Counted from the stretch's first letter, positions 20,859 to 39,271 are shown. The stretch: 64,000 nt of DNA from a virus (IMGVR_UViG_3300010429_000387:192001-256000), one strand, 5' to 3'. Notes: generated by a model not told the origin, from the sequence alone. Numbers and translations: made by a program.

Positions 20859-23800
20859 ATGGCGACGGCACCCCAGATCAAGCTCCGTGACGGTTCTGGA
20901 TACACCCAGAACCTAGTCTTCACCACCAATCAAGAGGCTGTCACCATCGAGGGCAAGGTGGATGTGTCGGCCGCCGACATCCAGGTCTCTGTCAACGGAG
21001 GGGGCTTCGTCTCAGACCCGACCCTGGTGAAGTTCGACCTCCCCAACTTCGTCATCCCCAACCCCGACAACTACCCGGATGGACTCACTCTGGAGCCAGG
21101 GGTCAACCTCATCCTCATCCGAACCATCGACACGATTGGCGGGGTGAGTGGTGCCTCTTCAGCCAACATCACCAGAGTCAGGCAGTCAGATGTTCTTCAG
21201 GTGGTTACCCCCTCGGGCCTCAGGGTTCGTAGGCGTAGGAACTCGGTGGACATTCTCGCTGCCCTCCCAGCTCAGAGGTTCAGCACCACCGGGGCACCCC
21301 TCGACAGCAACTTCAGGGGTTTCAACTTCTACGCCTCTACTACCCCCGGTGGAACCAACGGGTACTACAAGATCAATGCCAAGCTGGTCTCCGCAAAGTC
21401 AACGATCTACGAAGAGAGTGCTCAGCTCATCTCTGCTGAGAGCACAACGTTCGGCAACAGCAACAAGAAGCAGCTCTCCCTCCGTCTGGTAGACCAGGAT
21501 GAGTTCGGGAATGACATCACCGTCCGCCTCGACCAGACCTACGATGTCTCCCTCTACAATGAGAGCCTACGCTTCAAGGCCAGCCTTGAGGACTACCATC
21601 TCATCGAGTTCATCTCGTTCACTCACGTCAGAACTGGGACCGCCTACAGCATCAATGACGATCAGTTTGCCAGCGTCCCGGATACACTGCCGATCTACTA
21701 TGTAGTTACCTCGGTCTACTACGATCCTGCTACTGGACAAGAGGTGGAGAGCGCCTACTCCCAGGAGGTCCTCGGGGCTCCGTTGGTCATCGACACGAAC
21801 CTTCGGGAACTCCCTGGGAGGAACCAGTTTCAGATTGTCACCGACTACGTGACCGCCATCCAGCGGGTCAACCAGGAAGTGAGCCTTGTCCCAGGGTCCA
21901 CGACCCGTGACGTGAGTATCGACCCATTCAGTTCTGAAGCCGAGCGTCTGTACTTCCTCTTGGACTTCGTCCACAAGTGCCAGAGCTTTCTGACTCTTCT
22001 TCAGCTCGACAATGCTAGCGGGAATGGGGTGTCAGACCCGGTTGCCAGCTCTGCCTACAAGAACGCTCTCAAGGCTGCCCTCGGATACAGCACCAACCAA
22101 GCTGTCCAGGCCCTCATTGATGCAGCCTTCGACAAGCTAGCCAGCAACGTCAACAAGAAGAGGCTCCCAGGCCGTCCTGCTGTGGGCCAGGCTGTCTTCT
22201 ACACCTCGACTCGGCCGACCTTCAACCTGACGGTGCCCTCTGGGACCATTGTCAGCACGAGTGCCGATTCCAGCCTTGGGATCCCCTCCGTTCGGTTCCG
22301 GGTTGGTGGGACCTACGTCCTCCCTGCTTCTCAGGCAGACGCCTACTACAACTTCGATACCAAGCGCTACGAGCTTGTGGTTGACATTGTAGCCGAGACC
22401 ATCGGGGCAGACGGGAACCGACCGGCGGGGCAGATCAAGACCTCCTCGGGTGTCTCTGGCTTCCAGGTTACCAACACTGAAGCCACGGTCTATGGTGCCG
22501 ACCAGGAGAGCAACGCAGACCTGGCAGCCAGGGCTCTCCTAGGGTTCGTCTCAGTCGATACTGGCACGGAGGGTGGTTACGCCTCCACCTCAGCCGAGCA
22601 GATCGGGGTCATCAAGGCCAAGGTCGTCAAGGGTGGGGACCCTCTGATGATGAGGGACTACGACCCGGTGCGGCACAAGCACATCGGTGGGAAGGTGGAC
22701 ATCTGGGTCCAGGGCCTTCGGGAACGTCAGGTCTCGGAGAAGTTCGCATTCACCTTCGAGGTGGCCCGAGACGTTCAGTGTCTCATCTTGGACGCTACAA
22801 ACCTCATCTTCCGGGTTCAGGACAGCCGGGTGACGGTAAACACCCCCCTCACTGAGCTTCTGGACAACGTAACCCAGGGCCTTGGAGTTCGTAACGTAAC
22901 CCAGGGCCTCGACTACACCCTCACTGGGGCTCAGATCCTCGACTACCAGACGTTCAAGCTCGACCCTACCATCTCGGGGCAGGTCGAAACGAACGTGGAT
23001 GATGTGGTGGCAGCGGATTACCGCTTCCGAGTGTTCAACCAGTTCCGGTTCTCCTTCCAGCCCGTTCGACGGGTGGTCTCTGTGGTGGGTGAGGTCTCGG
23101 GTGCCCTAAACTCCGTTGGGGGCTACGACCTCTACAAGACGGCCGATCCTCTTCTTGAGGGTGAGAGCACCATCTCCACAGACTACCTCTCGATCAATCA
23201 GGTTGGGGGTATTCCCTCCGGGGAGAGCCTCCTGGTCAACCATGAGGTTCACGTCCTCATTGGGTTCCAGGAGGAGCCTTTGGGGAGTATCGGGATCAAC
23301 ACGAAGACCATCAGGGTTTTCAACGAGGATCGTTCCATCGAGTATGACGGCCCGGACGCTACCCTCCCTGACTATGAGGTCATCGAGGGGACCCCAACCA
23401 CTCCCGTCCGGATTGTCAGGACCTCCACCTCGGACATCTCGAACGGCTCAACAGTGTCCGTGGACTACTCGCATGACGAGAACTTCACGGTCACTTACGT
23501 TATCAACGACCTTCTCCAGCAGCTTCAGCGGACCATCGACTCCCGCAAGCACGCCACGGCTGACGTGGTTGCCAAGCAGGCTATCCAGAACTCCCTGGAC
23601 ATCGAAACCACGGTCCAGCTCCTCTCAGGAGCCACCAAGGACAAGGTTGACCCTGCCATCCGGTCTGGGCTGAGCCTGGAGACGAACAAGCGCCTCATCG
23701 GGCAAGGGATTGCCCAGTCCGACGCCATTCACGCTATCGACGCCACCGAGGGGGTGGACTACCAGGTCATCCCGTTGGCGAAGATGGCCTATGCCGATGG

Positions 23801-24311
23801 GTCCAGGAAGCTCCGGGAGAGCCTCACCTCGGCCTACAAGGATTTGCCCTCCTTGGGGATAGGCGGGAACCTGGCCTACATCCTGACCACTGGCCTACAG
23901 TCACCTACAACCGATGGGGGTGGGTTGGCAACTGAGCACAAGGGGGTCTTCCAGGATGATGAGCCCATGACCCTGAGCACAACGCTCCTCGGGGTGGCTA
24001 CGCTGCCCAACCAGGCGTTCATCATTGGAGCCGCTGGGGCGGTCATTCCGGGCTACTCGGACCCCACCACGCTCATCTCCGAGGGCTTCGTGACCCCAGC
24101 CGACCAGCAAGCAGAGCTTCTCCGAAGGACGGCCAACCATGTCGTCATCTCCATCTCTGGGTCTGGTAGCCCCATCGACATCCCGACCAACCACATCTAC
24201 GCCGTGTCCTATATCGTTCGAGGTGATTCTGGCTCCAAGGACATCTCCTCCTCTGGGGTGGAGTTCATTGAGCTGGGGAACTTCACGATCACTTTCAGGG
24301 AGGCGAAGTAA
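20859..24311 (+). CDS. Baseplate J-like (T4 gp6) wedge protein, expanded
   Basis: PGSTTRDVSIDP, DKLASNVNKKRLPGRPAVGQAVF, VPSGTIVST, AETIGADGN, GADQESNADLAAR, GTEGGY and GGKVDIWVQG are baseplate-J signatures. Confidence 0.85.
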   Translation: MATAPQIKLRDGSGYTQNLVFTTNQEAVTIEGKVDVSAADIQVSVNGGGFVSDPTLVKFDLPNFVIPNPDNYPDGLTLEPGVNLILIRTIDTIGGVSGASSANITRVRQSDVLQVVTPSGLRVRRRRNSVDILAALPAQRFSTTGAPLDSNFRGFNFYASTTPGGTNGYYKINAKLVSAKSTIYEESAQLISAESTTFGNSNKKQLSLRLVDQDEFGNDITVRLDQTYDVSLYNESLRFKASLEDYHLIEFISFTHVRTGTAYSINDDQFASVPDTLPIYYVVTSVYYDPATGQEVESAYSQEVLGAPLVIDTNLRELPGRNQFQIVTDYVTAIQRVNQEVSLVPGSTTRDVSIDPFSSEAERLYFLLDFVHKCQSFLTLLQLDNASGNGVSDPVASSAYKNALKAALGYSTNQAVQALIDAAFDKLASNVNKKRLPGRPAVGQAVFYTSTRPTFNLTVPSGTIVSTSADSSLGIPSVRFRVGGTYVLPASQADAYYNFDTKRYELVVDIVAETIGADGNRPAGQIKTSSGVSGFQVTNTEATVYGADQESNADLAARALLGFVSVDTGTEGGYASTSAEQIGVIKAKVVKGGDPLMMRDYDPVRHKHIGGKVDIWVQGLRERQVSEKFAFTFEVARDVQCLILDATNLIFRVQDSRVTVNTPLTELLDNVTQGLGVRNVTQGLDYTLTGAQILDYQTFKLDPTISGQVETNVDDVVAADYRFRVFNQFRFSFQPVRRVVSVVGEVSGALNSVGGYDLYKTADPLLEGESTISTDYLSINQVGGIPSGESLLVNHEVHVLIGFQEEPLGSIGINTKTIRVFNEDRSIEYDGPDATLPDYEVIEGTPTTPVRIVRTSTSDISNGSTVSVDYSHDENFTVTYVINDLLQQLQRTIDSRKHATADVVAKQAIQNSLDIETTVQLLSGATKDKVDPAIRSGLSLETNKRLIGQGIAQSDAIHAIDATEGVDYQVIPLAKMAYADGSRKLRESLTSAYKDLPSLGIGGNLAYILTTGLQSPTTDGGGLATEHKGVFQDDEPMTLSTTLLGVATLPNQAFIIGAAGAVIPGYSDPTTLISEGFVTPADQQAELLRRTANHVVISISGSGSPIDIPTNHIYAVSYIVRGDSGSKDISSSGVEFIELGNFTITFREAK

Positions 24312-25127
24312 ATGCCTAGGTTCGTCAAGGAGGTGGATCGCCTCAACTACACGATCCAGCAGTCTGGCAAGGAGTACAACATCCGCCTTGCCAACCGCTC
24401 CCAGGTCATCTTCACCAACTTGATGAACCTTCTCCCGTCGAACTACATCTCGACGGTCCAGGGGCCTAGCTACACGCTTGAGCTGAAAGCTGTGGCAGTT
24501 GAACTTGCCAAGCTGGAGCTTGCCCTAGAAGATGTTGAATTTGATAGTGATTTCAAGGGTACACGCTCTGACTTCATCTATAGCCTCATTGGCTACATGG
24601 TGTTCTTGAACGGCAAGCTGCCGTCCACCACGTTTGATGACCAGGAGTTCAAGACCTTCCTGTTGAACGTCATCCGGATCTACTTCCAGGGATCCGTCCC
24701 AGCCTCTATTCGAGAGGGAGTTCAGCTCTTCGTCTCTGGTACTGTTACAGTGACAGAGAACTTTCTCTTGGTCCGAGAGGGTGCTTCTGGCTACGACATC
24801 TCGGACCAGTTCGGTTTTCAAATCTCAATCGACAGCCTGGAGAACACGTTTCCTCCAGACATCTTCGCTGTTGACTCCAACATCCGTTTGATCCTCAACA
24901 TCATTCGGCCCGCCCACACCTTGTTCACGATCAGGTACGTGTTTCGAGACAAGTACGAGCCGAACAAGGACCAGGGTGGCAGGGTTCTTGACGCTCTTCG
25001 TTGGAGGTTGTCGAACTACTACTACGAGGACTTCCGAGGGTACGTCCGTGGCCTGAAAGACAAGGACCGCCTCGGTGTGAAGACGAACCAGCCGGTCTCC
25101 GGCGAGGATCATTCGATGGATTTCTAG
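24312..25127 (+). CDS. Baseplate wedge protein (gpI/gp7-like)
   Basis: LLPSNY near the N-terminus, YFQGSVPASIREGV and ILNIIRPAHT (typical gpI-like PAH motif). Starts immediately after the J stop. Confidence 0.7.
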   Translation: MPRFVKEVDRLNYTIQQSGKEYNIRLANRSQVIFTNLMNLLPSNYISTVQGPSYTLELKAVAVELAKLELALEDVEFDSDFKGTRSDFIYSLIGYMVFLNGKLPSTTFDDQEFKTFLLNVIRIYFQGSVPASIREGVQLFVSGTVTVTENFLLVREGASGYDISDQFGFQISIDSLENTFPPDIFAVDSNIRLILNIIRPAHTLFTIRYVFRDKYEPNKDQGGRVLDALRWRLSNYYYEDFRGYVRGLKDKDRLGVKTNQPVSGEDHSMDF

Positions 25128-25708: not shown

Positions 25709-25736
25709 GGGCACTTCTGGATGAATGGAGTGCTAA

Positions 25737-26903
25737 ATGGGCGTAGCGACTTGCCAGTTCACACAAGGGAGTAGTGTAGGCGGGAGCGGGAAATCAGTTT
25801 TCGGCTTCCAGTCTGGCGTTTCCGTCACCATGACGGATGACGGTGGCCCAGGTGCGACCTCGTACCAGTGGGAACTCCTTTCGTGGCCTGCTCCACTCGC
25901 TGTCCCCCCAGTCATCACTGACGAAACCCTTCAGGTGGCGACCATCACGCCAACCCTGGATGGGGTCTACATCGTCAAGCTGACAAGGACCGAAGGTGCC
26001 ACGGTCACCACCGACTACAAGTTCTTCGGGGTGGCTGACGAAGACGGACTGACTCTGCCCTCAGCGGGTCAGTCCGGGCACATGACCAACCAGACCACGG
26101 AGACACAGAAGACTGGGTGGGCTGGTAGGGCCAATGCCACTACGAACTTCCAACTCGATGCTTACCTCCGGTTCCTCAAGTCTCGGGTTGGAAGGTATGT
26201 AGGGCACACTCTAGTCATCCCGCACACTGGAACCCACACGACGGTTCAGGTCCAGGATGGGGTGAGTAAGCCCTTCCGGATCATCACGGCCTCGGGAGGC
26301 TCTGGGCTCTACACTGAGGAGCTGGTGATCCCAGCTACCGAGGGGCAGCGGATCCGCTATCTTGTGAGCCTCACAACGGGAGCGGGTGGGGTCAGGATGC
26401 TGAACGGGGTTGGTGGGTCCATAGTCCTGGACCTCCCGGCCCCTCCTTCGGGGACAGTCACCTATGAGGCTGAGTTCGTCTCCGATGGGACCAACTGGAA
26501 CCTCTCCCGAAGCACGGTTGTTGGTCAGAAGTCTCAGTTTCGTAGCCGGGACATCGACTTCGTGGCTGGCCTCAAGACGACCGATCAGACGATCCCGACC
26601 CGAATAGGTTCCGCTCGGATCAACACCAGTGACTTCCCTGACAACACGGAGTTCCGCTTCGTTGTTCAGATTGAGGTCACTGTGGGCCGAAGAGCCTACA
26701 TTCAGGTGTACGACCTGACCGGAGGGGACTACGTTGGCACGTCCCTGACTACGAACATCGAGACTCCAACTCAACTGGAGCAGGTCCTTTCACTCCCTTC
26801 TGGCACGAGGGACTATGAGGTCCTGCTCTGGCAAGGTTCCCCTGGTGGCCCCGCTGACAGGGTAACGTGTACCAGTGCCAAGATTGTAGCAAAGTGGGGC
26901 TGA
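25737..26903 (+). CDS. Putative fibre protein with N-terminal PKD/Ig-like domain
   Basis: ATSYQWELLSWP...ATITPTLDGVYIVKLT is PKD-like. It precedes the paralog array. Confidence 0.5.
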   Translation: MGVATCQFTQGSSVGGSGKSVFGFQSGVSVTMTDDGGPGATSYQWELLSWPAPLAVPPVITDETLQVATITPTLDGVYIVKLTRTEGATVTTDYKFFGVADEDGLTLPSAGQSGHMTNQTTETQKTGWAGRANATTNFQLDAYLRFLKSRVGRYVGHTLVIPHTGTHTTVQVQDGVSKPFRIITASGGSGLYTEELVIPATEGQRIRYLVSLTTGAGGVRMLNGVGGSIVLDLPAPPSGTVTYEAEFVSDGTNWNLSRSTVVGQKSQFRSRDIDFVAGLKTTDQTIPTRIGSARINTSDFPDNTEFRFVVQIEVTVGRRAYIQVYDLTGGDYVGTSLTTNIETPTQLEQVLSLPSGTRDYEVLLWQGSPGGPADRVTCTSAKIVAKWG

Positions 26904-26904
26904 T

Positions 26905-28116
26905 ATGGGCGGAACACTCAGAGGCAAGATTGACTGCTACAACAACTCGTTGAATCACTTCACGAACGCCCAAGAGGTCTTCAAGTGCCTCTACGACTTC
27001 CTGAAGTCTCACCCGAACATGACCGAGATCGCTCGGAACGGTGGGGGTGGAGGGTCGGCTGCAAGCGTTGATTTCTGGGATGGGTCCAACCCATTCAGGT
27101 ACAACGCCTGGTACGTGTTCCGGATGAACGATGCCACCCTAGAGTCTGGGGCGGCTAACCCTACCGGGTACAGCGGCCCGAGGACCTTCCCTTGGTACAT
27201 CTACGTCCAGTGGCTTCGTGGTGACTACACTCAGGACTGGAATGCCTCCCCGGCCACTCCATCTTACTTCGAGAACTACAACAATATCGCCTATTCGGGA
27301 GGGGTGGTAGGGGTCCAGTTCTGCATCCCTGTGGGTACAATAGCTGGAACGAGCGAGATGCCCTGGAACGGAGGCGGGACCTTTGGGGCAAACACCAAGG
27401 GGACTCCGGTTTGGAGGTCAACAGCGGGGACTCCCACAGGCTTCCAAGGCTCCTTCGTCTTCCCCAGGACAAACAACGTGGGTGGTTCCTTCGCTAGCTC
27501 CAGGCAGAGTTGCTCGAATGTCGTTTACTTCAACAACACTGGAACAACACCTGGTCGATGTCACTTCCTGGCCGATGATGACAGCCTGATCATTCTGACC
27601 AACGTCGGGGACAACGCCAACGACTGGACTCTCAACTACTTCGGGCTCTACAACGTTCGCCCTGGGATCACCATCAACTACCCGATGGTTCACATCCAAA
27701 GCGGGCTACCCCTTGGGGTAGCTAACACGACTTTTGGGCCAACAGGTGGGGCCTATCCAGGAGGTGGGTTCCCCGTGAATGCTGTTGCCACTGATGGTGT
27801 TCGTGGGCTGATTGTCTCCCGGTACGATGAGTTCTTCAATCAGTATTCCAGCCCGAACAAGATGTTTGCTTCGGAGCAGTACGATGAGTGGAAGATCCCT
27901 GTTGGGCTCTATGAGTACCCTAGCTACTATGGGTATGCTGGGGAGATAGACCTCCTGAGGGAGGTCTACAACTGGTCTCCGAATGATGCCAACATTGGAC
28001 GCACAAGGCTGGCAATTGGAACGAACACCCCTCAGGGTGTCAAGCTGACGATCCCCTGGAATGGTTCGACGATCCCAAGGTCGAACTTCACCCGAGCTGG
28101 GATCACCTTCCCTTGA
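26905..28116 (+). CDS. Paralog array member 1, putative receptor-binding/virion protein
   Basis: Shares GKI(D/E)C, LYDFL, AWYVF, PWNG, KG.PVW, VFPR.NN.GG, Y.G.ID motifs with the next four genes. Confidence 0.6.
   Translation: MGGTLRGKIDCYNNSLNHFTNAQEVFKCLYDFLKSHPNMTEIARNGGGGGSAASVDFWDGSNPFRYNAWYVFRMNDATLESGAANPTGYSGPRTFPWYIYVQWLRGDYTQDWNASPATPSYFENYNNIAYSGGVVGVQFCIPVGTIAGTSEMPWNGGGTFGANTKGTPVWRSTAGTPTGFQGSFVFPRTNNVGGSFASSRQSCSNVVYFNNTGTTPGRCHFLADDDSLIILTNVGDNANDWTLNYFGLYNVRPGITINYPMVHIQSGLPLGVANTTFGPTGGAYPGGGFPVNAVATDGVRGLIVSRYDEFFNQYSSPNKMFASEQYDEWKIPVGLYEYPSYYGYAGEIDLLREVYNWSPNDANIGRTRLAIGTNTPQGVKLTIPWNGSTIPRSNFTRAGITFP
27148..27211 (+). repeat. 64-bp exact direct repeat, second copy at 28369..28432
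   Basis: GGGGCGGCTAACCCTACC...CATCTACGTCCAGT is identical in paralogs 1 and 2. Confidence 0.9.
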
Positions 28117-28125
28117 GAGGCTGAC

Positions 28126-29334
28126 ATGGGCGGAACACTCAGAGGCAAGATTGACTGCTACTCCAACTCGGGGTCCCAGTACACCAACCCTCAGGCGGTA
28201 TTCAAGGGACTCTACGACTTCCTGAAGTCTCACCCGAACATGACCGAGATCGCTCGTCATGGTGGGAGTGGAGGGTCAGCCTCGAACATCAACTACTACG
28301 ATGAGGCCAATCCGTTCAACCACCAAGCCTGGTACGTGTTCCGGATGAACGACGCCACGTTGGAGTCGGGGGCGGCTAACCCTACCGGGTACAGCGGCCC
28401 GAGGACCTTCCCTTGGTACATCTACGTCCAGTTCAGTCGAGGAGACGTGGGGCAGGACTGGAACGCCTCCCCAGCCAACCCTTCATACTATGAGGCTCAA
28501 ACTGGAACCTACTGGAACGCAGGGATTGTGGGGGTTCAGTTCTGCATCCCAGTGGGGACGATAGCTGGAACGAGTGAGGCTCCTTGGAACGGTGGTGGAA
28601 CCCTCGGGACGAACACCAAGGGTTCCCCAGTTTGGAGAACCACAGCAGGGACCCCTACAGGGTTCCAAGGGTCCTTTGTTTTCCCTCGGTCCAACAGTCC
28701 TGGAGGGTCCCACTCATCTGCTCGGCAAAACTGCTCCAATATCGTGAACATCAACGGATACGGGGGTCCAGTTAGGTACAGTTTCATTGCTGATGACGAT
28801 AGTTTGGTCATCCTCACCAATGTAGGAGATGATGCCAACACCTGGACCATGAACTACTTTGGGTTGTACACTCCCAGGACCGGCCTGACCATCAACTACC
28901 CGATGGTCTACTTGCAGTGGACCCTCCCACTTGCGGTAGGGAACACGGTCTATGGGTCTACTGGAGGAGCCTACCCAGGAGGGGGGATCCCTCTGAATGC
29001 TGTTGCCACTGACGGTGTTCGCCAGGTGATCATCTCCCGGTATAATGAGTTCTTCAACCAGTATTCCAGCCCGAACAAGATGTTCGCCACCGAGAAGTAC
29101 GATGAGTTCCGGATCCCGGTCATCGTGTATGAGTCCCCGACCTTCTTTGGGTATGCCGGTGACATCGACTTCATTCGAGAGGTCTACAACTGGTCCCCGA
29201 ATGACATGACTACGGGAAGGCTACGGGCAGCTTGGGGGACCAACACTCCCTTTGGGATCAAGCTGACCACTCCTTGGAATGGGGTCACTTCCCCAAGGTC
29301 AACCTTCACCCGAGCCGGGGTCACCTTCCCGTGA
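28126..29334 (+). CDS. Paralog array member 2
   Basis: Closest to member 1; identical N-terminus MGGTLRGKIDCY and long identical DNA blocks. Confidence 0.6.
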   Translation: MGGTLRGKIDCYSNSGSQYTNPQAVFKGLYDFLKSHPNMTEIARHGGSGGSASNINYYDEANPFNHQAWYVFRMNDATLESGAANPTGYSGPRTFPWYIYVQFSRGDVGQDWNASPANPSYYEAQTGTYWNAGIVGVQFCIPVGTIAGTSEAPWNGGGTLGTNTKGSPVWRTTAGTPTGFQGSFVFPRSNSPGGSHSSARQNCSNIVNINGYGGPVRYSFIADDDSLVILTNVGDDANTWTMNYFGLYTPRTGLTINYPMVYLQWTLPLAVGNTVYGSTGGAYPGGGIPLNAVATDGVRQVIISRYNEFFNQYSSPNKMFATEKYDEFRIPVIVYESPTFFGYAGDIDFIREVYNWSPNDMTTGRLRAAWGTNTPFGIKLTTPWNGVTSPRSTFTRAGVTFP

Positions 29335-29344
29335 GAGGTCGCTG

Positions 29345-30583
29345 ATGTCCGGTACGATTCGAGGAAAGGTCGAGTGCTACTTCGGGTTCAGGAATACCCC
29401 TACGGGTACTGGGGCTGGGTACAGAGACATCGTCCAAGAGGTGTTCACTGCGATCTACAAATATTTCAAGGTCCATCCGAACATGACCGAGGTGGCTCGT
29501 CATGGGGGGATCGGTAGCACAGCTTCCTCAGTCAACTACTGGGACGAGTCTTTCCCCTTCACCAACAACGCCTGGTTCGTGTTCAAGATGAACACGGTCA
29601 CCGAAAACCCTCTCTACATTGGGACCAGGACGTTCCCTTGGTACGTTCTAGTCCAGTGGAACCGAGATGACCAGGCCAGCTTTGGCTCTTCCCCAGGGAA
29701 CCCAGGGAAGTGCGAAAACAACGCCAACTACAGCGGCAACAACAGCCGCATAGGCATTCAGTTTGCCATTGGCATCGGGGGGGATCAGAACCCCTGGAAC
29801 GGCACGGGGACACTTGGTCAGAACGTGAAGGGTTCCCCTGTCTGGAAGACTCCAACCGGCGGGACTGGGGTTATCGTGTATCCTCGCTCGAACAACGTGG
29901 GTGGAGCCCATGTGACGAACAAGGAGAACACCAGCCACATTTTCTATCGTGATAGTGGGAACACAACCAGTCCAAGCAAGGTCCACATCATCATGGATGA
30001 CGACAACTTCGTCTTCCTTGCAGATCCAACCTACATAGATCAGTGGTCTTTGTGCTACTTTGGTGTCTTCGTTCCACGGCCGGACCTGACTTTTGAATAC
30101 CCCTACGTGATGCTCAACACCATCACGGGGTATCTGCCGATCCTGAGAGGCAATGTCTACGGGAGCACCAACGGACAGGGGTGGTGTAATGAGAGCCCAA
30201 ACAACGGTGGTGGGATTCCAGCCCCTAATCCAGCCGTCAACGGGGTTAGGGGGCTTTTCATGGAGAGGTATCAACTCCTCTTCGACAGTTCATCTCCCTA
30301 TGTGTTCATGAACCCCAACAAATACTTCGACACTCCAGTGTTTGACGAGTACCCGATCCCTATTGCCATGTATGAGTACCCCAACTGGTACGGGTATGCA
30401 GGGCAGATCGACTTCATCAAGGAGACTTCTGGGTCTGAGACCAGGTGTCGAACCACTGGGACAGGTACTCGCTACGTCGTTGGCGGTTCCACCAGTCTCA
30501 CCAACGTCGTCAAGCTCTCTGTTCCCTGGCCTGCCAGCGTGAACCCAGGGATCGGCCTGACCCGAGAGGGAATCGTCTTCTAG
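29345..30583 (+). CDS. Paralog array member 3
   Basis: Start reassigned to ATG 29345 (MSGTIRGKVECY aligns with the paralog starts; SD GAGG). Has HPNMTE like members 1-2 and GIGGDQ.PWNGT like members 4-5. Confidence 0.6.
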   Translation: MSGTIRGKVECYFGFRNTPTGTGAGYRDIVQEVFTAIYKYFKVHPNMTEVARHGGIGSTASSVNYWDESFPFTNNAWFVFKMNTVTENPLYIGTRTFPWYVLVQWNRDDQASFGSSPGNPGKCENNANYSGNNSRIGIQFAIGIGGDQNPWNGTGTLGQNVKGSPVWKTPTGGTGVIVYPRSNNVGGAHVTNKENTSHIFYRDSGNTTSPSKVHIIMDDDNFVFLADPTYIDQWSLCYFGVFVPRPDLTFEYPYVMLNTITGYLPILRGNVYGSTNGQGWCNESPNNGGGIPAPNPAVNGVRGLFMERYQLLFDSSSPYVFMNPNKYFDTPVFDEYPIPIAMYEYPNWYGYAGQIDFIKETSGSETRCRTTGTGTRYVVGGSTSLTNVVKLSVPWPASVNPGIGLTREGIVF

Positions 30584-30587
30584 GAGG
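30572..30587 (+). repeat. 16-bp direct repeat ATCGTCTTCTAGGAGG, second copy at 31825..31840
   Basis: Read directly; precedes paralogs 4 and 5. Confidence 0.9.
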
Positions 30588-30595
30588 AACCAGTC

Positions 30596-31825
30596 ATGGC
30601 AGGTCAGGTCTACGGCAAGATTGAGTGTGTCTCGAACACCGGCAACAACAAGTACAACACCTACGAGGTGTTCAAGGGGCTCTACGACTTCCTCATGTAC
30701 CTTGAGACCCAGGGGGTTGTGACCCTTCGGGCTCGGTATGCTGGGATTGGAGCAGCCTCAGCAGCCTCAGTGGCCTACTGGGACCAGGCGAATCCCTTCA
30801 CCCACAACGCTTGGGCCTTGTTCGAGTGGAGGACCGGTTCGACAACTCCGTCGAATCCGAGCTATGCCGGGACCAGGAATGAGCCGTTCTACATTCTCAT
30901 CCAGTTTGCCACTTCCCCAGATGGATGGTTCTCCCAATCGGGCACCCCAGCGGCCCCGTCTTTGATTTTGGGTGTCAATGGGCCTGATGGGGGTCAATCT
31001 GGAGCTGTAGCCCTCTCAATGGCCGTTGGCATTGGAGGGGACCAGATGCCCTGGAACGGCACGCTGGGGACCTATGGGGACTCAGGGTCGTTCGGGAACC
31101 AAGCCAAGGGAAACCCGGTCTGGAAGGTCCCTACCGGCGGGACCGGCCTCTATGTCTTCCCTCGAAGCAACAACTCCGGAGGGTCCCATAACACCTCCAA
31201 GCAGAACATGAACTACGTGTTCTTCAATCAGTGGACCCCGAACATTCCAGTTAGATACCACTTCATTGCCGACCACGATGGTCTACTCATTCTGAATGAC
31301 GACGCCAATGACGTGAACTACCACTACCTGTACTCGGGGGTCTACAAGCTGAGAGATGGTCTAACTGACCAGGATCCCTACCTCATGATGGGTGGCAGGA
31401 CTGTGATTGCCCCAGATTCAGGAACGTACTTCGGGGATACATTGGGAACCAATGGCACCAACGGTGGTATTGCCTTCAAACGTGATGGGGTTTGTGATGT
31501 TCGGTTGGTAGGCACCTCCCTTCTTCAGGAAGTTCTTGGGTGGTCAACCAACTACACTCAACCGAATCGACTTTTTGCCTCAAGTACCTACGATGAGATG
31601 CCATACCTCATTCAACCGTATGAATACTATGCTGGATTTGCGGGGAGCATCGAGTTCTTCCGCATCGTCCAGAACGTAGCCAACTTGGAGAGGAACACGG
31701 CGGGCAACAAGCTCATCATCGGGACCCCAACTGTATCGGCTCTCAAGTTCATTGTCCCGTGGAACTCTGCTGTGGTCCCCCTCTCTGGGACGACTCGGGT
31801 GGGGACAACCGGGGCATTCCCCTGA
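30596..31825 (+). CDS. Paralog array member 4
   Basis: SD AGGAGG; same motif set; closest to member 5. Confidence 0.6.
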   Translation: MAGQVYGKIECVSNTGNNKYNTYEVFKGLYDFLMYLETQGVVTLRARYAGIGAASAASVAYWDQANPFTHNAWALFEWRTGSTTPSNPSYAGTRNEPFYILIQFATSPDGWFSQSGTPAAPSLILGVNGPDGGQSGAVALSMAVGIGGDQMPWNGTLGTYGDSGSFGNQAKGNPVWKVPTGGTGLYVFPRSNNSGGSHNTSKQNMNYVFFNQWTPNIPVRYHFIADHDGLLILNDDANDVNYHYLYSGVYKLRDGLTDQDPYLMMGGRTVIAPDSGTYFGDTLGTNGTNGGIAFKRDGVCDVRLVGTSLLQEVLGWSTNYTQPNRLFASSTYDEMPYLIQPYEYYAGFAGSIEFFRIVQNVANLERNTAGNKLIIGTPTVSALKFIVPWNSAVVPLSGTTRVGTTGAFP

Positions 31826-31848
31826 TCGTCTTCTAGGAGGTCTAGTTC

Positions 31849-33069
31849 ATGTCGGGGCAAGCCTACGGAAAGCTCGAATGTGTCTCCCTGTATACAGGGA
31901 ACAACGTCTATCAGAACGCCCAGGAGTTCTTCAAGGGCCTCTACGACTTCCTCATGTACCTTGAGACTCAAGGAGTTGTGACCCTTCGGGCTCGGTATGC
32001 TGGTTCTGGGGCGGCTTCGGCGGCAGCCGTTGGCTACTGGGATGAGAGTGGCCCCTTCACCTCGAACGCTTGGTACTTGTTTGAGTGGCGTACTGCCTCT
32101 ACAACCCCAGCAAACCCCAGCTATGCTGGACCTCGAAACGAGCCGTTCTACGTTTTGGTCCAGTGGGTTCAGTACAACAACACCTGGAGCCTTGGGAACT
32201 CCAACCCTGGACTGTGTATTGGTCAGGCCAACAACAACCAGTACGAACACTGGGTAGCGATCCAGATGGGGGTTGGCATCGGAGGGGACCAGATGCCCTG
32301 GAACGGCACGCTGGGGACCTACGGGGACTCAGGATCGTTCGGGAGCCAGGCCAAGGGAAACCCGGTCTGGAAGGTCCCTACAGGAGGAACGGGCCTCTAC
32401 GTCTTCCCCAGAAGCAACAACCTTGGGGGCACCCACTACACTTCCAAGCAGAACATGAACCTGGTGTTCACGACAGCCTACACGGCCACCCCAACCAGGT
32501 ATCACTACCTCGCAGACCACGATGGCCTCTTGCTCTTGGTGGATGACGCAAACAACATCAACTACCATTTCTGCTACACAGGGGCCTACAAGCGTCGAGA
32601 CAACCTGACGACCCAGGACCCTTACTGCATGATGGGTGGCCTGACAACCTCTATGCAGGGGTCCGGTGTGTACTTTGGAGGTGCTTCCGGCACTTCCACC
32701 GATAACGGGGGCATAGCCTTCAACACCTATGGCTCTTACGAGGTTCGTAACATGAAAACCTCGTACCTTGATGAGTTCATGGGGTACAGCGGCAACCAGA
32801 TGCAGCCGAATAGGCTTTTCTCCCCACCCACCTATGATGACATGCCTTGTCTCATTGGGGTTGGTGAATACTACGACGGGTTTGCCGGGGAGATTGACTT
32901 CTTCCGGGTGGTCCAGAACAGTGCCAACCTTCAGTTCAACCTGGACAAGAGCAAGCTCATCATCGGGACGCCCACGGTCACGAACTACAAGCTGCTGGTG
33001 CCCTGGATCTCTTCGGTGAATCCGCTCTCTGGGACGTATCGACTTGGAGTCACAGGGGCCTGTGGTTGA
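31849..33069 (+). CDS. Paralog array member 5
   Basis: SD AGGAGG; shares FKGLYDFLMYLETQGVVTLRARYAG and GIGGDQMPWNGTLGTYGDSGSFG with member 4. Confidence 0.6.
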   Translation: MSGQAYGKLECVSLYTGNNVYQNAQEFFKGLYDFLMYLETQGVVTLRARYAGSGAASAAAVGYWDESGPFTSNAWYLFEWRTASTTPANPSYAGPRNEPFYVLVQWVQYNNTWSLGNSNPGLCIGQANNNQYEHWVAIQMGVGIGGDQMPWNGTLGTYGDSGSFGSQAKGNPVWKVPTGGTGLYVFPRSNNLGGTHYTSKQNMNLVFTTAYTATPTRYHYLADHDGLLLLVDDANNINYHFCYTGAYKRRDNLTTQDPYCMMGGLTTSMQGSGVYFGGASGTSTDNGGIAFNTYGSYEVRNMKTSYLDEFMGYSGNQMQPNRLFSPPTYDDMPCLIGVGEYYDGFAGEIDFFRVVQNSANLQFNLDKSKLIIGTPTVTNYKLLVPWISSVNPLSGTYRLGVTGACG

Positions 33070-33077
33070 GGTGATCC

Positions 33078-33560
33078 ATGACGGTCGCAACTGACGGACA
33101 ATGTGTCACAACCAGGTGGTACACTGATGCTGTAAGGGTGGATGCCAAGTACCCGGCGGACCCTCCTGCTGCAAACACCGGGTTCAACACATCCATGGTT
33201 GATAGGGTGGTCCCTACTTTCGCTCAGGACTTGAGGGCTCTCAACACGTTCTTCAACGTCTTGATGACCCTTCGACAGGTTGGGACCTCCCACCATGACG
33301 GTGCTTTTGTGGTTGAGGAGTTCTGCGACCGTACTGTGTCGAGGATCGGTGTGCAGCATCCCATGAGAACCATCGGAACTGCCTACGCTTCTGGCTCTGG
33401 ATACATCACCTACGTCAAGAAGAGGGCCAGAGATTCCGGGGCTCCAGGGGTTGTCTACGTCACTTGGGTCACGAACGTCATCACTCAACCCTACCCGTTC
33501 ACGCCTCCATACGGTGGCCCTCTTGTGGACACCATCATTGCAGAACTGTGGCAGGTGTGA
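33078..33560 (+). CDS. Hypothetical protein
   Basis: SD GAGGTG; fills the gap between the array and the 1900-aa gene. Confidence 0.6.
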   Translation: MTVATDGQCVTTRWYTDAVRVDAKYPADPPAANTGFNTSMVDRVVPTFAQDLRALNTFFNVLMTLRQVGTSHHDGAFVVEEFCDRTVSRIGVQHPMRTIGTAYASGSGYITYVKKRARDSGAPGVVYVTWVTNVITQPYPFTPPYGGPLVDTIIAELWQV

Positions 33561-33568: not shown

Positions 33569-36500
33569 ATGTCTTACGGCAGTAGCCCCTTCGGTACGAC
33601 ACCCTTTGGTGGGCTGTCCCTTGAGTCCGGGGGCGTCTCCATCACGTCGGCCACCCCGGCCATTGATGGGACGGGTGCGCCGGTCAACACCCCTGTCCAG
33701 GTCGTCCTCCACAGCATCTCCGAGTTCGAGGCGTACACTCTCCAGTTCTTCCTGAACGGAATCCAGGTCATCCAGGATGCCTCGTTCCTGTCCCCGTTCT
33801 CTGGGACAGTCATCAACGAGGGGCAAGACCTCACCATCAACGTAACTGGGCACCCAGACTTCGCTGACGGGAACACCGTACAGGTGGACATCTCCGTCAT
33901 GACTCTGGCTGAGGAAACTGCGAATCTCAGCTACGTCTTCCACACTGGTGGGGCAGTCTTCGACGGGGCTGAGAACTTCTCCATCGGGGAGGACCTTCGG
34001 TTCGGTCAGCACGCTAGGGTGGAGGAGGCCCTGGTTGTCGAAGAGGGGATCTCCCCCTTCATCGCCAACGCAACTGAAACCCTCACCCAGACCGTCCAGA
34101 CCTCGTTTGACTTCAATGTCACGTTCCAGGTCGAAACCGTCCTACACCTCTTCGAGAGCCTTCAGATCGGCTCTCTTCGGTTCTACAGCATCAACGAAAC
34201 CACGGTTGGCGTAGAGTTCCCAGAGGTAATGGATATCGAGGGGGTCTCGGACCCTATTGCTTACCTCATCACGCCAAGGGAATCGAGAGCTTTTCCGACC
34301 CTCATCAGTTCAGCCATCCCCGTCCAGGATGTCTTTCAGGAGGGATCCTCTGGACAAGTGGTGCCCCCCGAGACGTTCGACTCCAGCAGGGCCGCTCGTT
34401 CTTTCGTCTTTGACACAGTAACCGGGTCGTTCACCCCTAAGAATATCGGGGACTACTTCTACATCGAGGGGGTGATGTTCAACTCCTCGATGCCCTACAG
34501 GATTCTTTCCTACTCTGGGTCCAAGGTGGTCCTGGACCGAGAGGTTCCCTACACAGGGCCAGACAACGGGACCTACATTCCCCCTGGCTCTTCATGGTCC
34601 CCAGGTACTTTTGTGCCTGGGACAGGCACCCTGAAGTGGTCTCACCGGGATGGGGCACGAGGGGCCATCCTGAAGGTCACTGAGACCTCTCTGGGTAGAA
34701 CCTACTTCGGGCAAGTCTTCTTGCTGACTAAGAAGGCTTCTCACACCCCCTACTCAGGAGGGGTCGAGTTCGTTGCCTTTGGGTCGAAGCCCAAGGTGGT
34801 GACCGCCTTCACCGTAGTGGATGATGGTTCGGTCATCGTGTCCTTTGACAAGGACATGCGGGTTGACCCGGATCTTCTCAACCCGAGTGAGTACCTTCTC
34901 CTCGGGCCAACCTCGGAACCCGTCAGGATTCGTGAGGTTCGGGCTATCGACCCCAAGACAGTCGTTCTCTTCACTTCTGGGATGGGTGAGGGGCTCCAAT
35001 ACCTTACGGTCAACGCCCTTGGGACTCCCAAGGATGAGGCTGGAAACCCTGTTGATCCCTCCTTCAACCAGCACACCTTCGTCGGTACGGTCCCCCTTCT
35101 TACCAGGTCTCTCTTCACTGACCGGGGACCAATCTCGAAACCTGCCCTGGACATTCAGACTGGGACCGGAGGGGCGATTCAGACGGCCCCCTCTTTGCAC
35201 TTCGGGAACCTGACCCTGAGCGAGGTGGTCCTTCCTGGTGGTTCGTTCACCTCAAGCCACGTTGGTCTGTACCTGGAGCTAAGTGGGTCCACCGTGAATG
35301 GGGGCTCCTATCGGGTGGTTGGTGTGGTCAACCAGACCCGGCTCAAGCTCCAGGCCAGCTTCCACCTCCCGGACCCTGCCAACGGTGCCCTTTCTTGGCG
35401 CCTGTACGACCCTAGGACAGGGGAGATTGCGGACAGCCCCTCCGATGTCACGGTCAAGATTGACGGCCATCGTGTAGCCGTCCAGGCCGTTGTGGGGCTG
35501 CTTGGGCAGGTGATCCTGGACTCCCCCCCTGCCCCCGAAGCCGATGTGAAGATCGACTACTCCTGGATCCCGGACCCGACTGTTGAGGTCCGGAAGCTCA
35601 ACTCCAAGGAGTTCAGGCTCAACAACTGGCTCAACAATGTGGGCGGTCAGTCTACATCTCAGCACACCTACCGATACCGGAACGTGCTGGTCTCCCCAGC
35701 TTCCTTCCAGACTGAGGGCATCCTCGCCAACCAGGCCCAACCACTGCTTCGGGAACTCCACTACCGAGCTTTTGAGCGGGCCTACTCGGTTGCTCTGAAC
35801 GACCCCAACCTCTTTGTCCTGAATACCCCGATCCATCGGATCGGGTACCCTCCTCTTTCGAGGCAGGTGGAGGAGGTATCCGTCTCCTATTCAGCGGACA
35901 CCCTTCCTGAGGTGGACCCGGTTGCCCCTTGGGTTCGTAGGGGGACTGGGACGGCTGTTGCTGTTGAGGGGGCTCTCCTGGTCGAGAAGACCTCCTCTGG
36001 TCCATTCCCTACAGGGGAGCCTCTATTCTGGACACGGGAGGTAGACCTCACCTTCCCCTGTGTCTACGCTGCAACCTGGCGCCTCAAGATCAACTCCACG
36101 ACACCAGATGGGGTCTACACGGGCATCTCTGTAGGCTGGTCTGACACCAACCGAGTGGTTGTTCTGGGCTACCTCATCGAGAATGGGGTGCGGAAGATCG
36201 GGTTCCTCAAGAATGGATTCGGGAACCGTCAAGCTAGCCTAGAAGCCTGGACGGGTGGGGTAGACTCCAACGGCAACCCCACCCAGCTACCGTTCGACTT
36301 TGACTGGTCTGTTCTCCACTCCTACCGGTTCTTCCGGGACCGAGATGGGGTGACCCGTTTCTACGTGGATGGGGAGGTGGTTGAGAGCCTTCGGATCACG
36401 GAAGAGGAGCTTCCTTTCCTTGAGGAGCTGGATGACCCCTTCAATGAAGTCCAGAATGCCTACTTTGGGTCACTGAGCCGGGAGGCTCAGAACTTGAGCA

Positions 36501-39271
36501 CTTGGGACTTCGTTCGGTACGTTGTCCTTCCAGTCAACCCCGAACAGAGCGCACCCTCGATCTTCGTGTCCTACGAGGGTGACATCTACCCGGAGACGGC
36601 CCTGACCCCCTGGACCCCTGTCGGGTACCATGGGAACGAGTCCCTTTCCAACGGGCTACTTCTTCTTGACTCCACTTCGGCAACGGATGCCTCGACCTCA
36701 AGTGCCGTCGGTCTCATGGGTGGGGACTTCCGGGGCTTCACCAGGATCGAGCCTCTTCTGGGAGCCTCTTCTGATGTGACCCTCGACCTTGGGGTTAGCC
36801 TTCGCACCTACACTCATGGGGTCTCGGCCAACTCAGTCATGGCGGCCATCGACGATGGGACTCGTCTGGTCCAGCTATGCTTCTTCCCCTCGAAGCCTCA
36901 ACCAAAGCTCAGCTACCCTGGGAGATCGCTTCCACAGGATGCAACTCCGAACCCCTGGTCCTCCCACGGGACGGCCCCTGCAACGATGGTTGGGAGGATC
37001 CTACGCATCGAGGACACCACAGTCGTTGATGGTCGGGTCTTCTCCATCAACGACCTGGCACCCATGGGTTCGGACGAGCGAATCCTTGAGGAGAGCCTGG
37101 ACTGGTACGCTGAGGCCAAGTTCCAGGTCGTCTCATACACGCCTGACGGGTCCCCCGACAACAACTTCTGTGGGGCCACTCTGGATGTCTTCGATGGGAC
37201 CCACACCCTTGGGATCATGACCCGAGTGGACCCCACCACGGGGGAACTTCAGATAGCATTCCACTCAGACGGTCAGATCAGACCCGTTTTGACGGCCCTG
37301 ATCAAGTTCAACTGGTTCGATGGGAAGGCCCACATCTACCGTTTGGTGAAGAATACCAGCGGAGACCTCGTGAGCTTGTTCATCGACAACAAGTTCATGG
37401 GATCCATTGCCTACTCCTTGTTCGATACAGCGAACGGGGACCCGACCTACTCCTTTGGGTCCTCCACGTTGACCAGCAGGGTGGCTCGCTCGGTTGTGGA
37501 GTGGCACTACGCCAACGTCTGGCGAGCACAACCGGCTTCTGGGGTTCAGCACTACCTTGGGATCTGGAAGGGTTCGGACCCGAACTCTCTTCTGGGTTAT
37601 CACTTGCCGATCCGGATTCAGGGGAACGGAGCAACAGCAGGCAACCAGCTCACGGATGCAGCAGCCGACTTCGTAGCGGCTGGGGTTCAGGTTGGGGACG
37701 ACCTGATCATCGACTATGGGGTCAACCGAGGAGTCTACTCGATTGCCTCAAGGTCTGGGGGCACGCTCACCATCACTGGGTCCTTCCCTCAGCCTGGGTC
37801 CCTGACTCAGGGGTACCGGATCCCTGCTCAGACTGATTGGCGGTCTTCAAGTCCGATGGCCTTGAAGGCAAGCGGTGGGGGCCTAGCGGTTGCAAACTAC
37901 CTGACGGACAACACCAAGGACTTCGTTGCTCTTGGTGTTCAGCCTGGTGACAGCATAGTGATCGAGGTTGGTCCAAACCAGGGGTCGTTCCCGATTGTCT
38001 CTGTGGATACAACCACACTCACGATTGCGGCCACTTTCCTAACAGTCCCTACTTGGTCTTTCTACAAGATATCGGCTGAAGGGGGTGGGACAACTCACAA
38101 GTTCCGGCTGGTCCGGGACCCAGCAGGGTTTGTGGCCCTCTTCCAGGATGCGATCCCCGAGCCACTTCTTCAGGTGGACTACAGCGAGGTCAATCTTCCT
38201 CACAGCTCGGTGGGACTGCCCTACACGATCAACCGTGGGCTGCCCTCTGTCTCATGGGGGGCCTTTGACCCTGAGAACCTCTCCCAGACCGCTTGGGACT
38301 TCGTCAGGTACGGGGTCACTCGTTCTCCAAGTGAGCTGAAGATTGCTCCGCACCATCAGTTCTTGAATCAGCGGAACGTCATGTCCTCCCCCGAGCACTT
38401 GTTCGGGAAAGTGAAGCACAACCACACCCAGTACACCTCCTCTTCTACAGGTGTGCCCTATCCGTGGGAGGAATACTCCAGCAGCCCTGACATTGTAGCG
38501 TTTACCAGGCTCAACGAGGGTACCCCCCTTGTCCCTCAAACGCAGACCTATGAGGTCCGTCGCCCCAGGCCACAGGTTACGTTCCTATCGACGCTCAACA
38601 ACCCCTCGGATGTCTTGAACACAGAGGGTTTCCAGTTGAATGACGCCTCCACTGAGGTGAAGATCGTTGTTCCAGACAACGTTCTCTACAACAGCCTACA
38701 GGTTCTTGAGCAGAAGTCTGGGGAGCCTGACCTGGTGGCGCCATTCTCCGATGAAAGCGGCCTAGTTCGGATCGGGAAGCTATCCTGGCAGAAGACGGTG
38801 TGTGCCGTCTATGAGGGGGACGTGCTTCCCGAGCAGGACCCTGGCTACGGGACCCCATGGGTTCTGGCTTCGGAGATCGAATCCGAGGTGACTACCACGG
38901 TTGCTGGAGGGGTTCTCACCTATGGGGTGGCTCCTGGCTCCACGACACGGACGGTCTACAGGAACGCAACCCCCATCACGGACCCCAAGGGCCTCTCGAC
39001 CAGGGTGGACTTCCGGCTTCGGCTCTTGAGTGACTCAACGCTCGGGACTGGGGACTCAGGGGTTCGCTTCGGGTTCAGTGCCCTTGGCATGACAGCGGCC
39101 CTGGCGTTCGTTTCTACGCCTTATGGCGAGCGAGAGGTGCGGCTGGTTGACTTGAACTCAAACGCTGTCCTGGGGTCAATCTCGTTCGACTACCTTGACG
39201 GTGATTTTCATGTCTATCGCCTGGTCAAGAATGTGGACGAGGGGGTCGTTGACTTCCTGATCGACCCATGA
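33569..39271 (+). CDS. Giant (1900 aa) multidomain fibre/receptor-binding protein with Ig-like and lectin (ConA/LamG)-like repeats
   Basis: SD GAGGTG. Ig-like segments (VIVSFDKDM...NPSEY...KDEAGNPV) and four repeats starting YxGxxLPE...PW and ending (D/N)W...HxYRLV. Confidence 0.6.
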   Translation: MSYGSSPFGTTPFGGLSLESGGVSITSATPAIDGTGAPVNTPVQVVLHSISEFEAYTLQFFLNGIQVIQDASFLSPFSGTVINEGQDLTINVTGHPDFADGNTVQVDISVMTLAEETANLSYVFHTGGAVFDGAENFSIGEDLRFGQHARVEEALVVEEGISPFIANATETLTQTVQTSFDFNVTFQVETVLHLFESLQIGSLRFYSINETTVGVEFPEVMDIEGVSDPIAYLITPRESRAFPTLISSAIPVQDVFQEGSSGQVVPPETFDSSRAARSFVFDTVTGSFTPKNIGDYFYIEGVMFNSSMPYRILSYSGSKVVLDREVPYTGPDNGTYIPPGSSWSPGTFVPGTGTLKWSHRDGARGAILKVTETSLGRTYFGQVFLLTKKASHTPYSGGVEFVAFGSKPKVVTAFTVVDDGSVIVSFDKDMRVDPDLLNPSEYLLLGPTSEPVRIREVRAIDPKTVVLFTSGMGEGLQYLTVNALGTPKDEAGNPVDPSFNQHTFVGTVPLLTRSLFTDRGPISKPALDIQTGTGGAIQTAPSLHFGNLTLSEVVLPGGSFTSSHVGLYLELSGSTVNGGSYRVVGVVNQTRLKLQASFHLPDPANGALSWRLYDPRTGEIADSPSDVTVKIDGHRVAVQAVVGLLGQVILDSPPAPEADVKIDYSWIPDPTVEVRKLNSKEFRLNNWLNNVGGQSTSQHTYRYRNVLVSPASFQTEGILANQAQPLLRELHYRAFERAYSVALNDPNLFVLNTPIHRIGYPPLSRQVEEVSVSYSADTLPEVDPVAPWVRRGTGTAVAVEGALLVEKTSSGPFPTGEPLFWTREVDLTFPCVYAATWRLKINSTTPDGVYTGISVGWSDTNRVVVLGYLIENGVRKIGFLKNGFGNRQASLEAWTGGVDSNGNPTQLPFDFDWSVLHSYRFFRDRDGVTRFYVDGEVVESLRITEEELPFLEELDDPFNEVQNAYFGSLSREAQNLSTWDFVRYVVLPVNPEQSAPSIFVSYEGDIYPETALTPWTPVGYHGNESLSNGLLLLDSTSATDASTSSAVGLMGGDFRGFTRIEPLLGASSDVTLDLGVSLRTYTHGVSANSVMAAIDDGTRLVQLCFFPSKPQPKLSYPGRSLPQDATPNPWSSHGTAPATMVGRILRIEDTTVVDGRVFSINDLAPMGSDERILEESLDWYAEAKFQVVSYTPDGSPDNNFCGATLDVFDGTHTLGIMTRVDPTTGELQIAFHSDGQIRPVLTALIKFNWFDGKAHIYRLVKNTSGDLVSLFIDNKFMGSIAYSLFDTANGDPTYSFGSSTLTSRVARSVVEWHYANVWRAQPASGVQHYLGIWKGSDPNSLLGYHLPIRIQGNGATAGNQLTDAAADFVAAGVQVGDDLIIDYGVNRGVYSIASRSGGTLTITGSFPQPGSLTQGYRIPAQTDWRSSSPMALKASGGGLAVANYLTDNTKDFVALGVQPGDSIVIEVGPNQGSFPIVSVDTTTLTIAATFLTVPTWSFYKISAEGGGTTHKFRLVRDPAGFVALFQDAIPEPLLQVDYSEVNLPHSSVGLPYTINRGLPSVSWGAFDPENLSQTAWDFVRYGVTRSPSELKIAPHHQFLNQRNVMSSPEHLFGKVKHNHTQYTSSSTGVPYPWEEYSSSPDIVAFTRLNEGTPLVPQTQTYEVRRPRPQVTFLSTLNNPSDVLNTEGFQLNDASTEVKIVVPDNVLYNSLQVLEQKSGEPDLVAPFSDESGLVRIGKLSWQKTVCAVYEGDVLPEQDPGYGTPWVLASEIESEVTTTVAGGVLTYGVAPGSTTRTVYRNATPITDPKGLSTRVDFRLRLLSDSTLGTGDSGVRFGFSALGMTAALAFVSTPYGEREVRLVDLNSNAVLGSISFDYLDGDFHVYRLVKNVDEGVVDFLIDP

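Follow-up and report, generated by a model that had tools for sequence, protein, structure and literature searches.

Why would a phage carry, within a run of structural genes, five consecutive versions of one gene, and do such copies stand in for one another or work together? The question is raised by a 64,000-nucleotide stretch of viral DNA (hereafter the window), which is bases 192001-256000 of the 407,078-bp virus record IMGVR_UViG_3300010429_000387, a genome with direct terminal repeats that was judged complete and whose DNA is present in anaerobic-digester and wastewater metagenomes. At positions 26905-33069 of the window lies a tandem array of five paralogs of about 400 amino acids (aa), which an earlier interpretation made from the DNA alone (the sequence-only reading) took to be an expandable repertoire of interchangeable tip or adhesin subunits for host range. 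We lean, without great confidence, towards a different answer, namely that the five paralogs are different parts which assemble together into a heteromeric baseplate arm or adhesin.

Nearly all long open reading frames (ORFs) of the window are on the + strand and form a single long structural-gene run, in which the array appears as five intact, same-strand, head-to-tail ORFs of 403, 402, 412, 409 and 406 aa. The phage itself is called G000 and two of its relatives G001 and G002; the classes named here are those of a phylogenetic tree taken up below.

26905..28116, + strand: paralog 1, class A (A1), 403 aa; AlphaFold2 (AF2) model; support for the class A clade 100/100
28126..29334, + strand: paralog 2, class A (A2), 402 aa; placed by the tree and by 73% identity (aa) with paralog 1
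29345..30583, + strand: paralog 3, class B, 412 aa; class B clade 100/99 with position 2 of G001 and of G002
30596..31825, + strand: paralog 4, class C (C1), 409 aa; support for the class C clade 100/100, together with positions 3 and 4 of G001 and position 3 of G002
31825..31840, + strand: 16-nucleotide (nt) junction copy, ATCGTCTTCTAGGAGG, which repeats 30572-30587
31849..33069, + strand: paralog 5, class C (C2), 406 aa; clusters with position 4 of G001 at 100/99

The genes are 9-23 nt apart and a Shine-Dalgarno-like site precedes each of them; gene 3 most likely starts at ATG 29345, 8 nt past GAGAGG (as in gene 2), and not at ATG 29279. All five proteins align over their full length, with pairwise identities of 39-73% and 84 invariant columns, and paralogs 2, 3, 4 and 5 are 73, 45, 39 and 39% identical to paralog 1. 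Direct repeats at the DNA level, spaced ~1220-1260 nt apart, confirm the tandem array. ORFs, alignment and DNA repeats thus agree with the sequence-only reading on five ~400-aa paralogs in tandem, and the motifs that it had listed (GKI[DE]C, PF..NAW, PWNG, KG.PVW, FPR.NN.GG, PN..F....YD, Y.G.ID and PW) were all found. The complete 407-kb genome contains exactly five copies of the family. Since little space separates the genes, every one of which has its own ribosome-binding site, and since promoter- and terminator-like sites occur inside the array no more often than in shuffled sequence, it is likely that the five are co-transcribed in one late operon.

The family was not recognised from the sequence alone, and it is indeed nameless in the databases. 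No match for the paralogs was found in Pfam or PHROGs (PHROG E up to 0.1, three paralogs searched), a PDB sequence search with the family profile returned noise only, and tblastn and megablast against 50,697 phage records left the paralogs unmatched. There are 36 close clusters and, at E up to 1e-3, 514 clusters at 50% identity, all of them unnamed, mostly viral, and nearly all of ~370-410 aa.

Structure prediction was more informative. The AF2 model of paralog 1, computed from a 39-sequence alignment, is confident (predicted local distance difference test 89.4, predicted template modelling score 0.92) and consists of a single compact domain, mostly beta with one long helix. When the model was compared with 48,161 PDB representatives (VIA), the sole strong match was the baseplate of Pseudomonas phage JBD30 (8rk3, gp47 chain; Z 17.5, root-mean-square deviation 3.8 Å), aligned over 253 residues of 317 and spanning model residues 6-386 of 403. 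The next best match had Z 4.2, and no beta-helix, triple beta-helix or coiled-coil shaft structure exceeded that value. Foldseek matches both JBD30 chains, of 305 aa and 317 aa (E 1.2e-4 and 3.7e-4), and the adjacent JBD30 genes gp48 (307 aa) and gp47 (318 aa) encode proteins whose lengths fit the matched chains. These two similar-fold proteins were described as "tail fibre forming proteins" (PDB 8rk3/8rk5; PMC11445458); each of the three bent arms of the phage is made of three gp47/gp48 heterodimers, and the arms embrace the type IV pilus (PMC11445458). The same type of pair has been predicted in the Mesyanzhinovviridae phage Lydia, as gp67/gp68 (PMC11946847). The idea of receptor contact, first raised from sequence, thereby gains a structural counterpart, the predicted fold being that of a known receptor-contacting fibre subunit.

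The likeness is one of predicted fold. The window paralogs match neither phrog_687 nor phrog_9130, while gp47 and gp48 themselves match phrog_687 at about 1e-100; aligning the 103-sequence family with a 46-sequence gp47 alignment in hhalign gave no significant result (E 0.064, probability <1%), nor did hhalign comparison with the single gp47 and gp48 sequences. Judged by the model, the array family is a sequence-unrelated new branch of a fold known from one solved phage. Like gp47 and gp48, the array proteins come from adjacent paralogous genes in a tail-tip or baseplate block and are predicted to be globular, unlike trimeric coiled or beta-helical fibres, and relatives of both groups take inserted sugar-binding modules. 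They differ in that the array proteins are ~85-95 residues longer, with no detectable sequence or profile similarity, and in the number of paralogs, which is three to nine in the array family and two in JBD30. The settings also differ, for the array belongs to huge myophage-like genomes, where it follows a gp6/J-like wedge gene (four genes on), whereas the JBD30 genes are those of a siphophage and lie between the tape-measure and distal tail genes.

A second point of comparison comes from cultured giant phages with contractile tails. In BFVD the paralog model has weaker fold matches (Foldseek E 1.6e-4 to 2.4e-3), which include Gp371 of Bacillus phage G, three consecutive accessions of 293, 270 and 267 aa, Atu_ph07 and several siphophages; for the phage G and 0305phi8-36 triplets, the template modelling scores normalised by target are 0.44-0.57. 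Phage G gp371-373 (L020 29965-32568) are three tandem paralogs, 30-36% identical, that belong to phrog_9130 ("virion structural protein") and come after the tail-fibre-like gp369. The lengths 293, 270 and 267 aa are exactly those of ORF158-160 in Bacillus phage 0305phi8-36 (L033 11676-14200), and mass spectrometry is the basis on which each of the three is annotated as a virion protein. The gpV-like and gpJ-like baseplate genes of that phage are upstream of this triplet (our array likewise lies downstream of a gpJ-like gene), and the triplet belongs to a block of ORFs, 152-161, that a related prophage does not have (PMC2147016); the comparative paper on 0305phi8-36 does not treat ORF158-160 by name (PMC2147016). 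Both triplets thus resemble the array in being tandem paralogs with a fold-level match, although their proteins have ~270-290 aa as against ~400 aa, and small searches gave them weak matches (E 1e-9 to 1e-3) to the gp47-family profile, which the array family does not match. Phage G and 0305phi8-36 are cultured Bacillus phages with uncharacterised gp47-like triplets, and are tractable systems for the heteromer idea. A further parallel is the branched complex of tailspikes TSP1-4 in CBA120, where several receptor-binding proteins likewise come from adjacent genes and share a mounting on the baseplate; those tailspikes are trimeric beta-helix enzymes whose fold is unrelated to that of the five paralogs.

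The history of the array bears on whether the paralogs are interchangeable. A maximum-likelihood tree of 50 family members resolves three classes (support 100/100 for A, 100/99 for B and 100/100 for C), distributed as follows.

Class A: genes 1 and 2 of G000 (this phage); position 1 of G001; position 1 of G002
Class B: gene 3 of G000; position 2 of G001; position 2 of G002
Class C: genes 4 and 5 of G000; positions 3 and 4 of G001; position 3 of G002

The order A-B-C is kept in all three phages, and four further contigs have one class A and one class B member each. Classes A and C correspond to the subfamilies 1+2 and 4+5 that had been noticed from the sequence. The accompanying suggestion that member 3 is mosaic-like fails, since paralog 3 belongs to an ortholog class of its own (100/99) and its diagnostic sites, 36 common to class A and 19 to class C, are scattered along the protein; a recombinant origin is therefore rejected.

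According to the tree, class C was duplicated after the split from G002 and class A after the split from G001; the array therefore grew from three to four to five genes. The sequence ATCGTCTTCTAGGAGG at 30572-30587, which comprises the last codons and stop of gene 3 and the ribosome-binding site of gene 4, recurs past the stop of gene 4, and this junction copy before gene 5 is a scar of the tandem duplication that gave C1 and C2 and marks the duplicated unit. Exact shared DNA runs of 64, 47 and 36 nt connect paralogs 1 and 2, and runs of 41 and 32 nt connect paralogs 4 and 5. Synonymous identity of the recent paralogs is strongly uneven (29/32 codons at the 5' end vs about one third elsewhere) and region-wise identity to the orthologs P0001 and P0003 switches partners, a pattern that suggests patches of gene conversion between neighbouring paralogs (1/2 and 4/5). 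All five copies are under purifying selection: the ratio of nonsynonymous to synonymous divergence (dN/dS) is 0.20 for paralogs 1 vs 2 and 0.24 for 4 vs 5, and G000-G001 orthologs have dN of 0.22-0.30 with dS saturated. Among the sequencing runs listed with this DNA none is of RNA (one that is labelled RNA is probably DNA), and contigs from the runs break within the array. As a separate observation, two contigs of a relative from a 2021 wastewater run join paralog 1 to 2 (27541-28774) and 4 to 5 (31417-32702); they could come from related strains that have one A gene and one C gene, or be chimeras of the assembly across the repeats, and they are not used as evidence here.

Arrays of other sizes are found beyond these three phages. 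Copy number in relatives, from G000 to G005, is 5, 4, 3, 2, 3 and 1, the two copies of G003 and three of G004 reflecting independent expansions in other lineages, and the IMG/VR contigs G007, G008, G009 and G010 have 4, 7, 9 and 9 tandem copies (G008 at L028 5771-15134, G009 at L029 4263-16864, G010 at L030 4107-17236). These differences in copy number support the word "expandable" in the sequence-only reading. Identity among the nine paralogs of G009 is only 21-35%; between G009 and G010, the best match is at the same position in 9/9 cases, same-position pairs having summed bit scores of 195-498 and all other pairs no more than 176. Diverged paralogs that are kept one-to-one and in order are what is expected of parts with their own place in a complex, and not of exchangeable cassettes. 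The A-B-C order in every close relative, the nine positional orthologs, and the co-assembly of adjacent paralogs in JBD30 all speak against the interchangeability that the sequence-only reading had proposed.

The distribution of sequence variation was also at odds with that reading, which had placed highly variable loops rich in Asn, Tyr, Trp and Gly on a conserved scaffold. Variability is no higher at coil than at strand positions (entropy 1.79 vs 1.88, p = 0.18), and of the most conserved segments (residues 1-10, 41-100 and 141-200) the latter two are loop-rich, 141-200 being a long irregular stretch with PWNG, KG.PVW and FPR.NN.GG. As to composition, Asn is indeed enriched in variable columns, along with Ser, Thr and Ala, whereas Trp and Gly, with Pro and Phe, are concentrated in conserved ones. 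Larger changes occur at one loop beside PWNG/KG.PVW (profile positions ~150-187), where longer members of the family from metagenomes (P0049, P0051, P0068, P0152 and P0163) have insertions of 40-125 aa, one of which resembles CBM5/12, a carbohydrate-binding module (CBM), at E 3e-5, just under the Pfam cut-off. Relatives of gp47 carry PA14 or F5/8-type-C (discoidin) domains, and in a structural neighbour cluster in the ESM Atlas 22% of members have F5/8-type-C domains. The inserted modules suggest a scaffold that presents binding modules, as adhesin scaffolds do. A diversity-generating retroelement was also considered, and was rejected as unlikely because the complete 407-kb genome has no RVT_1 match to a reverse transcriptase, while controls matched; a search for a template/variable repeat pair found that the repeats in the array region are the paralogs themselves, and targeted hypermutation is unlikely.

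Taken together, the fold, the solved precedent, the mass-spectrometry-verified triplet of 0305phi8-36 and the placement after a wedge gene make a virion role at the baseplate periphery most likely, while ordered one-to-one retention (A-B-C here, nine genes in G009/G010) and the adjacent-paralog heteromer of JBD30 argue for non-redundant, co-assembling parts. From this we infer virion location, heteromeric assembly and adhesion for the five paralogs. The genes would encode outer-baseplate virion proteins, each a globular bead with the gp47/gp48 fold, and these would join up as the subunits of a hetero-oligomeric arm or short fibre. Each of the anciently separated classes A, B and C would occupy a distinct place in the assembly, and the extra A and extra C of this phage would have come by tandem duplication and been partly homogenised by gene conversion. 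The assembly would probably hang on the wedge by way of the neighbouring 178-aa phrog_5417, 388-aa lectin-like and 160-aa proteins, and the arm would probably make the first, reversible contact with the host surface, be it a filament such as a pilus or a polysaccharide. The recent duplications (A1/A2 and C1/C2) may make the assembly longer, or their products may be alternative subunits.

Several observations weigh against this interpretation. Kinship to gp47/gp48 is read from a predicted fold, with no sequence-level link. In G008, G009 and G010 the gene immediately before the array encodes a PhoH-like ATPase (G009 also has a ClpP-like protease gene farther upstream), and in G005 the terminase and portal genes flank the single copy, so that the family is not always found in a baseplate setting. 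That a one-copy phage exists at all means that heteromers are not obligatory. Conserved polar residues (D59, R93, K165, D224, D226 and N190), and conserved Trp in loop-rich segments, might belong to an enzymatic or sugar-binding site and not to contacts between subunits. Lastly, A1/A2 and C1/C2 could equally be alternative specificities.

That last point leads to the rival that survives best, which we consider unlikely: each paralog, alone or as a homo-oligomer, would be a separate baseplate adhesin, and duplication would widen or shift host range. Variable copy number among relatives with stepwise growth from three to five genes, the independent expansions elsewhere (two in G003, three in G004, up to nine in others) and the single-copy phage all fit such a model, as do the lectin-like neighbour and the inserted CBM-like modules; so does the faster evolution of the array, which is 64-71% identical to that of G001 where the wedge genes are 78-83% identical (the 1900-aa protein described below is 68% identical). 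Yet exchangeable cassettes would seldom be retained one-to-one and in order over long divergence, as the A-B-C classes and the nine genes of G009/G010 have been; no class has been lost in any contig long enough to judge; and the only solved example of the fold is a heteromer of adjacent paralogs.

An improbable alternative is a set of virion-borne enzymes or lectins, in which the loop-rich core (PWNG, KG.PVW, FPR.NN.GG, ADDD) is catalytic or sugar-binding and the paralogs differ in the surface polymer on which they act. In its favour, conservation is highest at polar or aromatic residues of the loop-rich segments 41-100 and 141-200, and gp47 has been classed as a nitrilase-superfamily hydrolase, the JBD30 authors suggesting a hydrolase role (PMC11445458). 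The PDB comparison, however, gave no enzyme fold beyond JBD30 (next Z 4.2), gp47 and gp48 have no Pfam match at E up to 0.1, and in a tentative profile alignment ADDD is replaced by ANGRR in the gp47 family, leaving no site common across the fold. A non-tail or non-virion protein, whether head or neck decoration or intracellular, with an incidental baseplate neighbourhood, is suggested by the PhoH- and ClpP-linked arrays of G008-G010 and the terminase/portal setting of G005, but is very improbable given a position after the wedge gene that is kept in four phages (G000-G003), fold relatives that are tail-fibre or mass-spectrometry-verified virion proteins, and an array that sits inside an uninterrupted same-strand structural-gene run.

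Should the five proteins co-assemble as subunits of one arm or adhesin, a more general and quite tentative model would be that such arrays encode beads-on-a-string heteropolymeric appendages with a fixed place for each paralog, gene number (1 to 9) setting the length, shape and valency of the arm, and tandem duplication with gene conversion serving to extend the arm or change its tip. Fibres would then be built in a modular manner, unlike trimeric shafts. The gp47/gp48 type of fibre, chained globular paralogs with no trimeric shaft, has so far come from one solved siphophage, and the present comparison extends its predicted fold to uncultured phages, huge ones included, in which a large family without a name, comprising at least 514 clusters (50% identity), forms ordered arrays of up to nine genes. 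Co-assembly would make the arrays a readable genetic blueprint of a heteropolymeric host-recognition organelle, would improve annotation of "dark" structural regions in jumbo phages, and would offer phage engineers a second type of adhesin scaffold. Tandem paralogs in fibre modules, moreover, should not by default be taken for alternative host-range cassettes.

The genes that surround the array are the following.

20859..24311, + strand: baseplate wedge protein, gp6/P2 gpJ-like, 1150 aa; Pfam Baseplate_J E 1.7e-15, phrog_6 E 4e-24
24312..25127, + strand: wedge-associated protein, 271 aa; homolog fused to the 1900-aa homolog in the 485-kb LR745208
25172..25708, + strand: phrog_5417 protein, 178 aa; E 4.8e-7; first gene of the block that LR745208 lacks
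25737..26903, + strand: lectin-like accessory protein, 388 aa; PKD-like, helix, tailspike-N-terminal-like and CBM-like jelly-roll parts (AF2)
33078..33560, + strand: 160-aa protein, last gene of the block; kept after the array in G001 and G002
33569..39271, + strand: giant structural protein, 1900 aa; homolog fused to the 271-aa homolog in LR745208

An upstream gene with Baseplate_J and phrog_6 matches, giant tail-fibre-like proteins downstream and the 388-aa neighbour substantiate the earlier statement that the array is embedded among fibre genes. The order J-like, 271, 178, 388, array, 160, 1900 is identical in G001 and G002, where the wedge protein is 80% and 69% identical, the 178-aa protein 78% in both, and the 160-aa protein 52-55%. 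In G003, a distant phage with a complete 108-kb genome, the two copies are placed two small genes past a phrog_6 wedge gene. Pfam, PHROGs and the ESM Atlas gave no lead for the 160-aa protein, and the 1900-aa protein has no PHROG match; past its gene come further giant proteins with weak tail-fibre matches.

The 388-aa protein, which is directly upstream of the array in G001 and G002 as well, gave an AF2 model (predicted local distance difference test 86.6) whose parts resemble, in order, a PKD domain (residues 1-103, VIA Z 9.4), the CBA120 TSP4 N-terminus and the Solidus tailspike (residues 151-262, Z 8.2-8.7, with 8.2 for TSP4), and a porphyran-binding CBM (Z 10.8) and CBM36 (Z 10.0; residues 269-387). 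Many homologs of ~275 aa have only the N-terminal 40% in common with it, and the C-terminal binding part appears to be exchangeable.

The nearest database phages by wedge protein, LR745208 and Tunturi_5, lack the array family. In LR745208, an uncultured 485-kb phage whose wedge protein has 36% identity, the J-like gene is followed by a gene for a single chain of 1763 aa (L019 23364-28655), of which residues 49-328 match the 271-aa protein and residues 540-1455 match window 33569-39271. A fusion of this Rosetta-stone kind hints at binding between the 271-aa and 1900-aa proteins, and at insertion or loss of the eight intervening genes as an accessory block; lying between proteins that are fused elsewhere, the block at 25172-33560 thus behaves like an accessory module of the baseplate periphery. 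The window has a second phrog_5417 protein at 41225-41872 (E 7e-21), with a weak match to Pfam BW3TFN ("Baseplate wedge 3 tail fiber network component"). BLAST shows no likeness between the two phrog_5417 proteins; each comes before a set of large appendage genes, and they are possibly paired adaptors.

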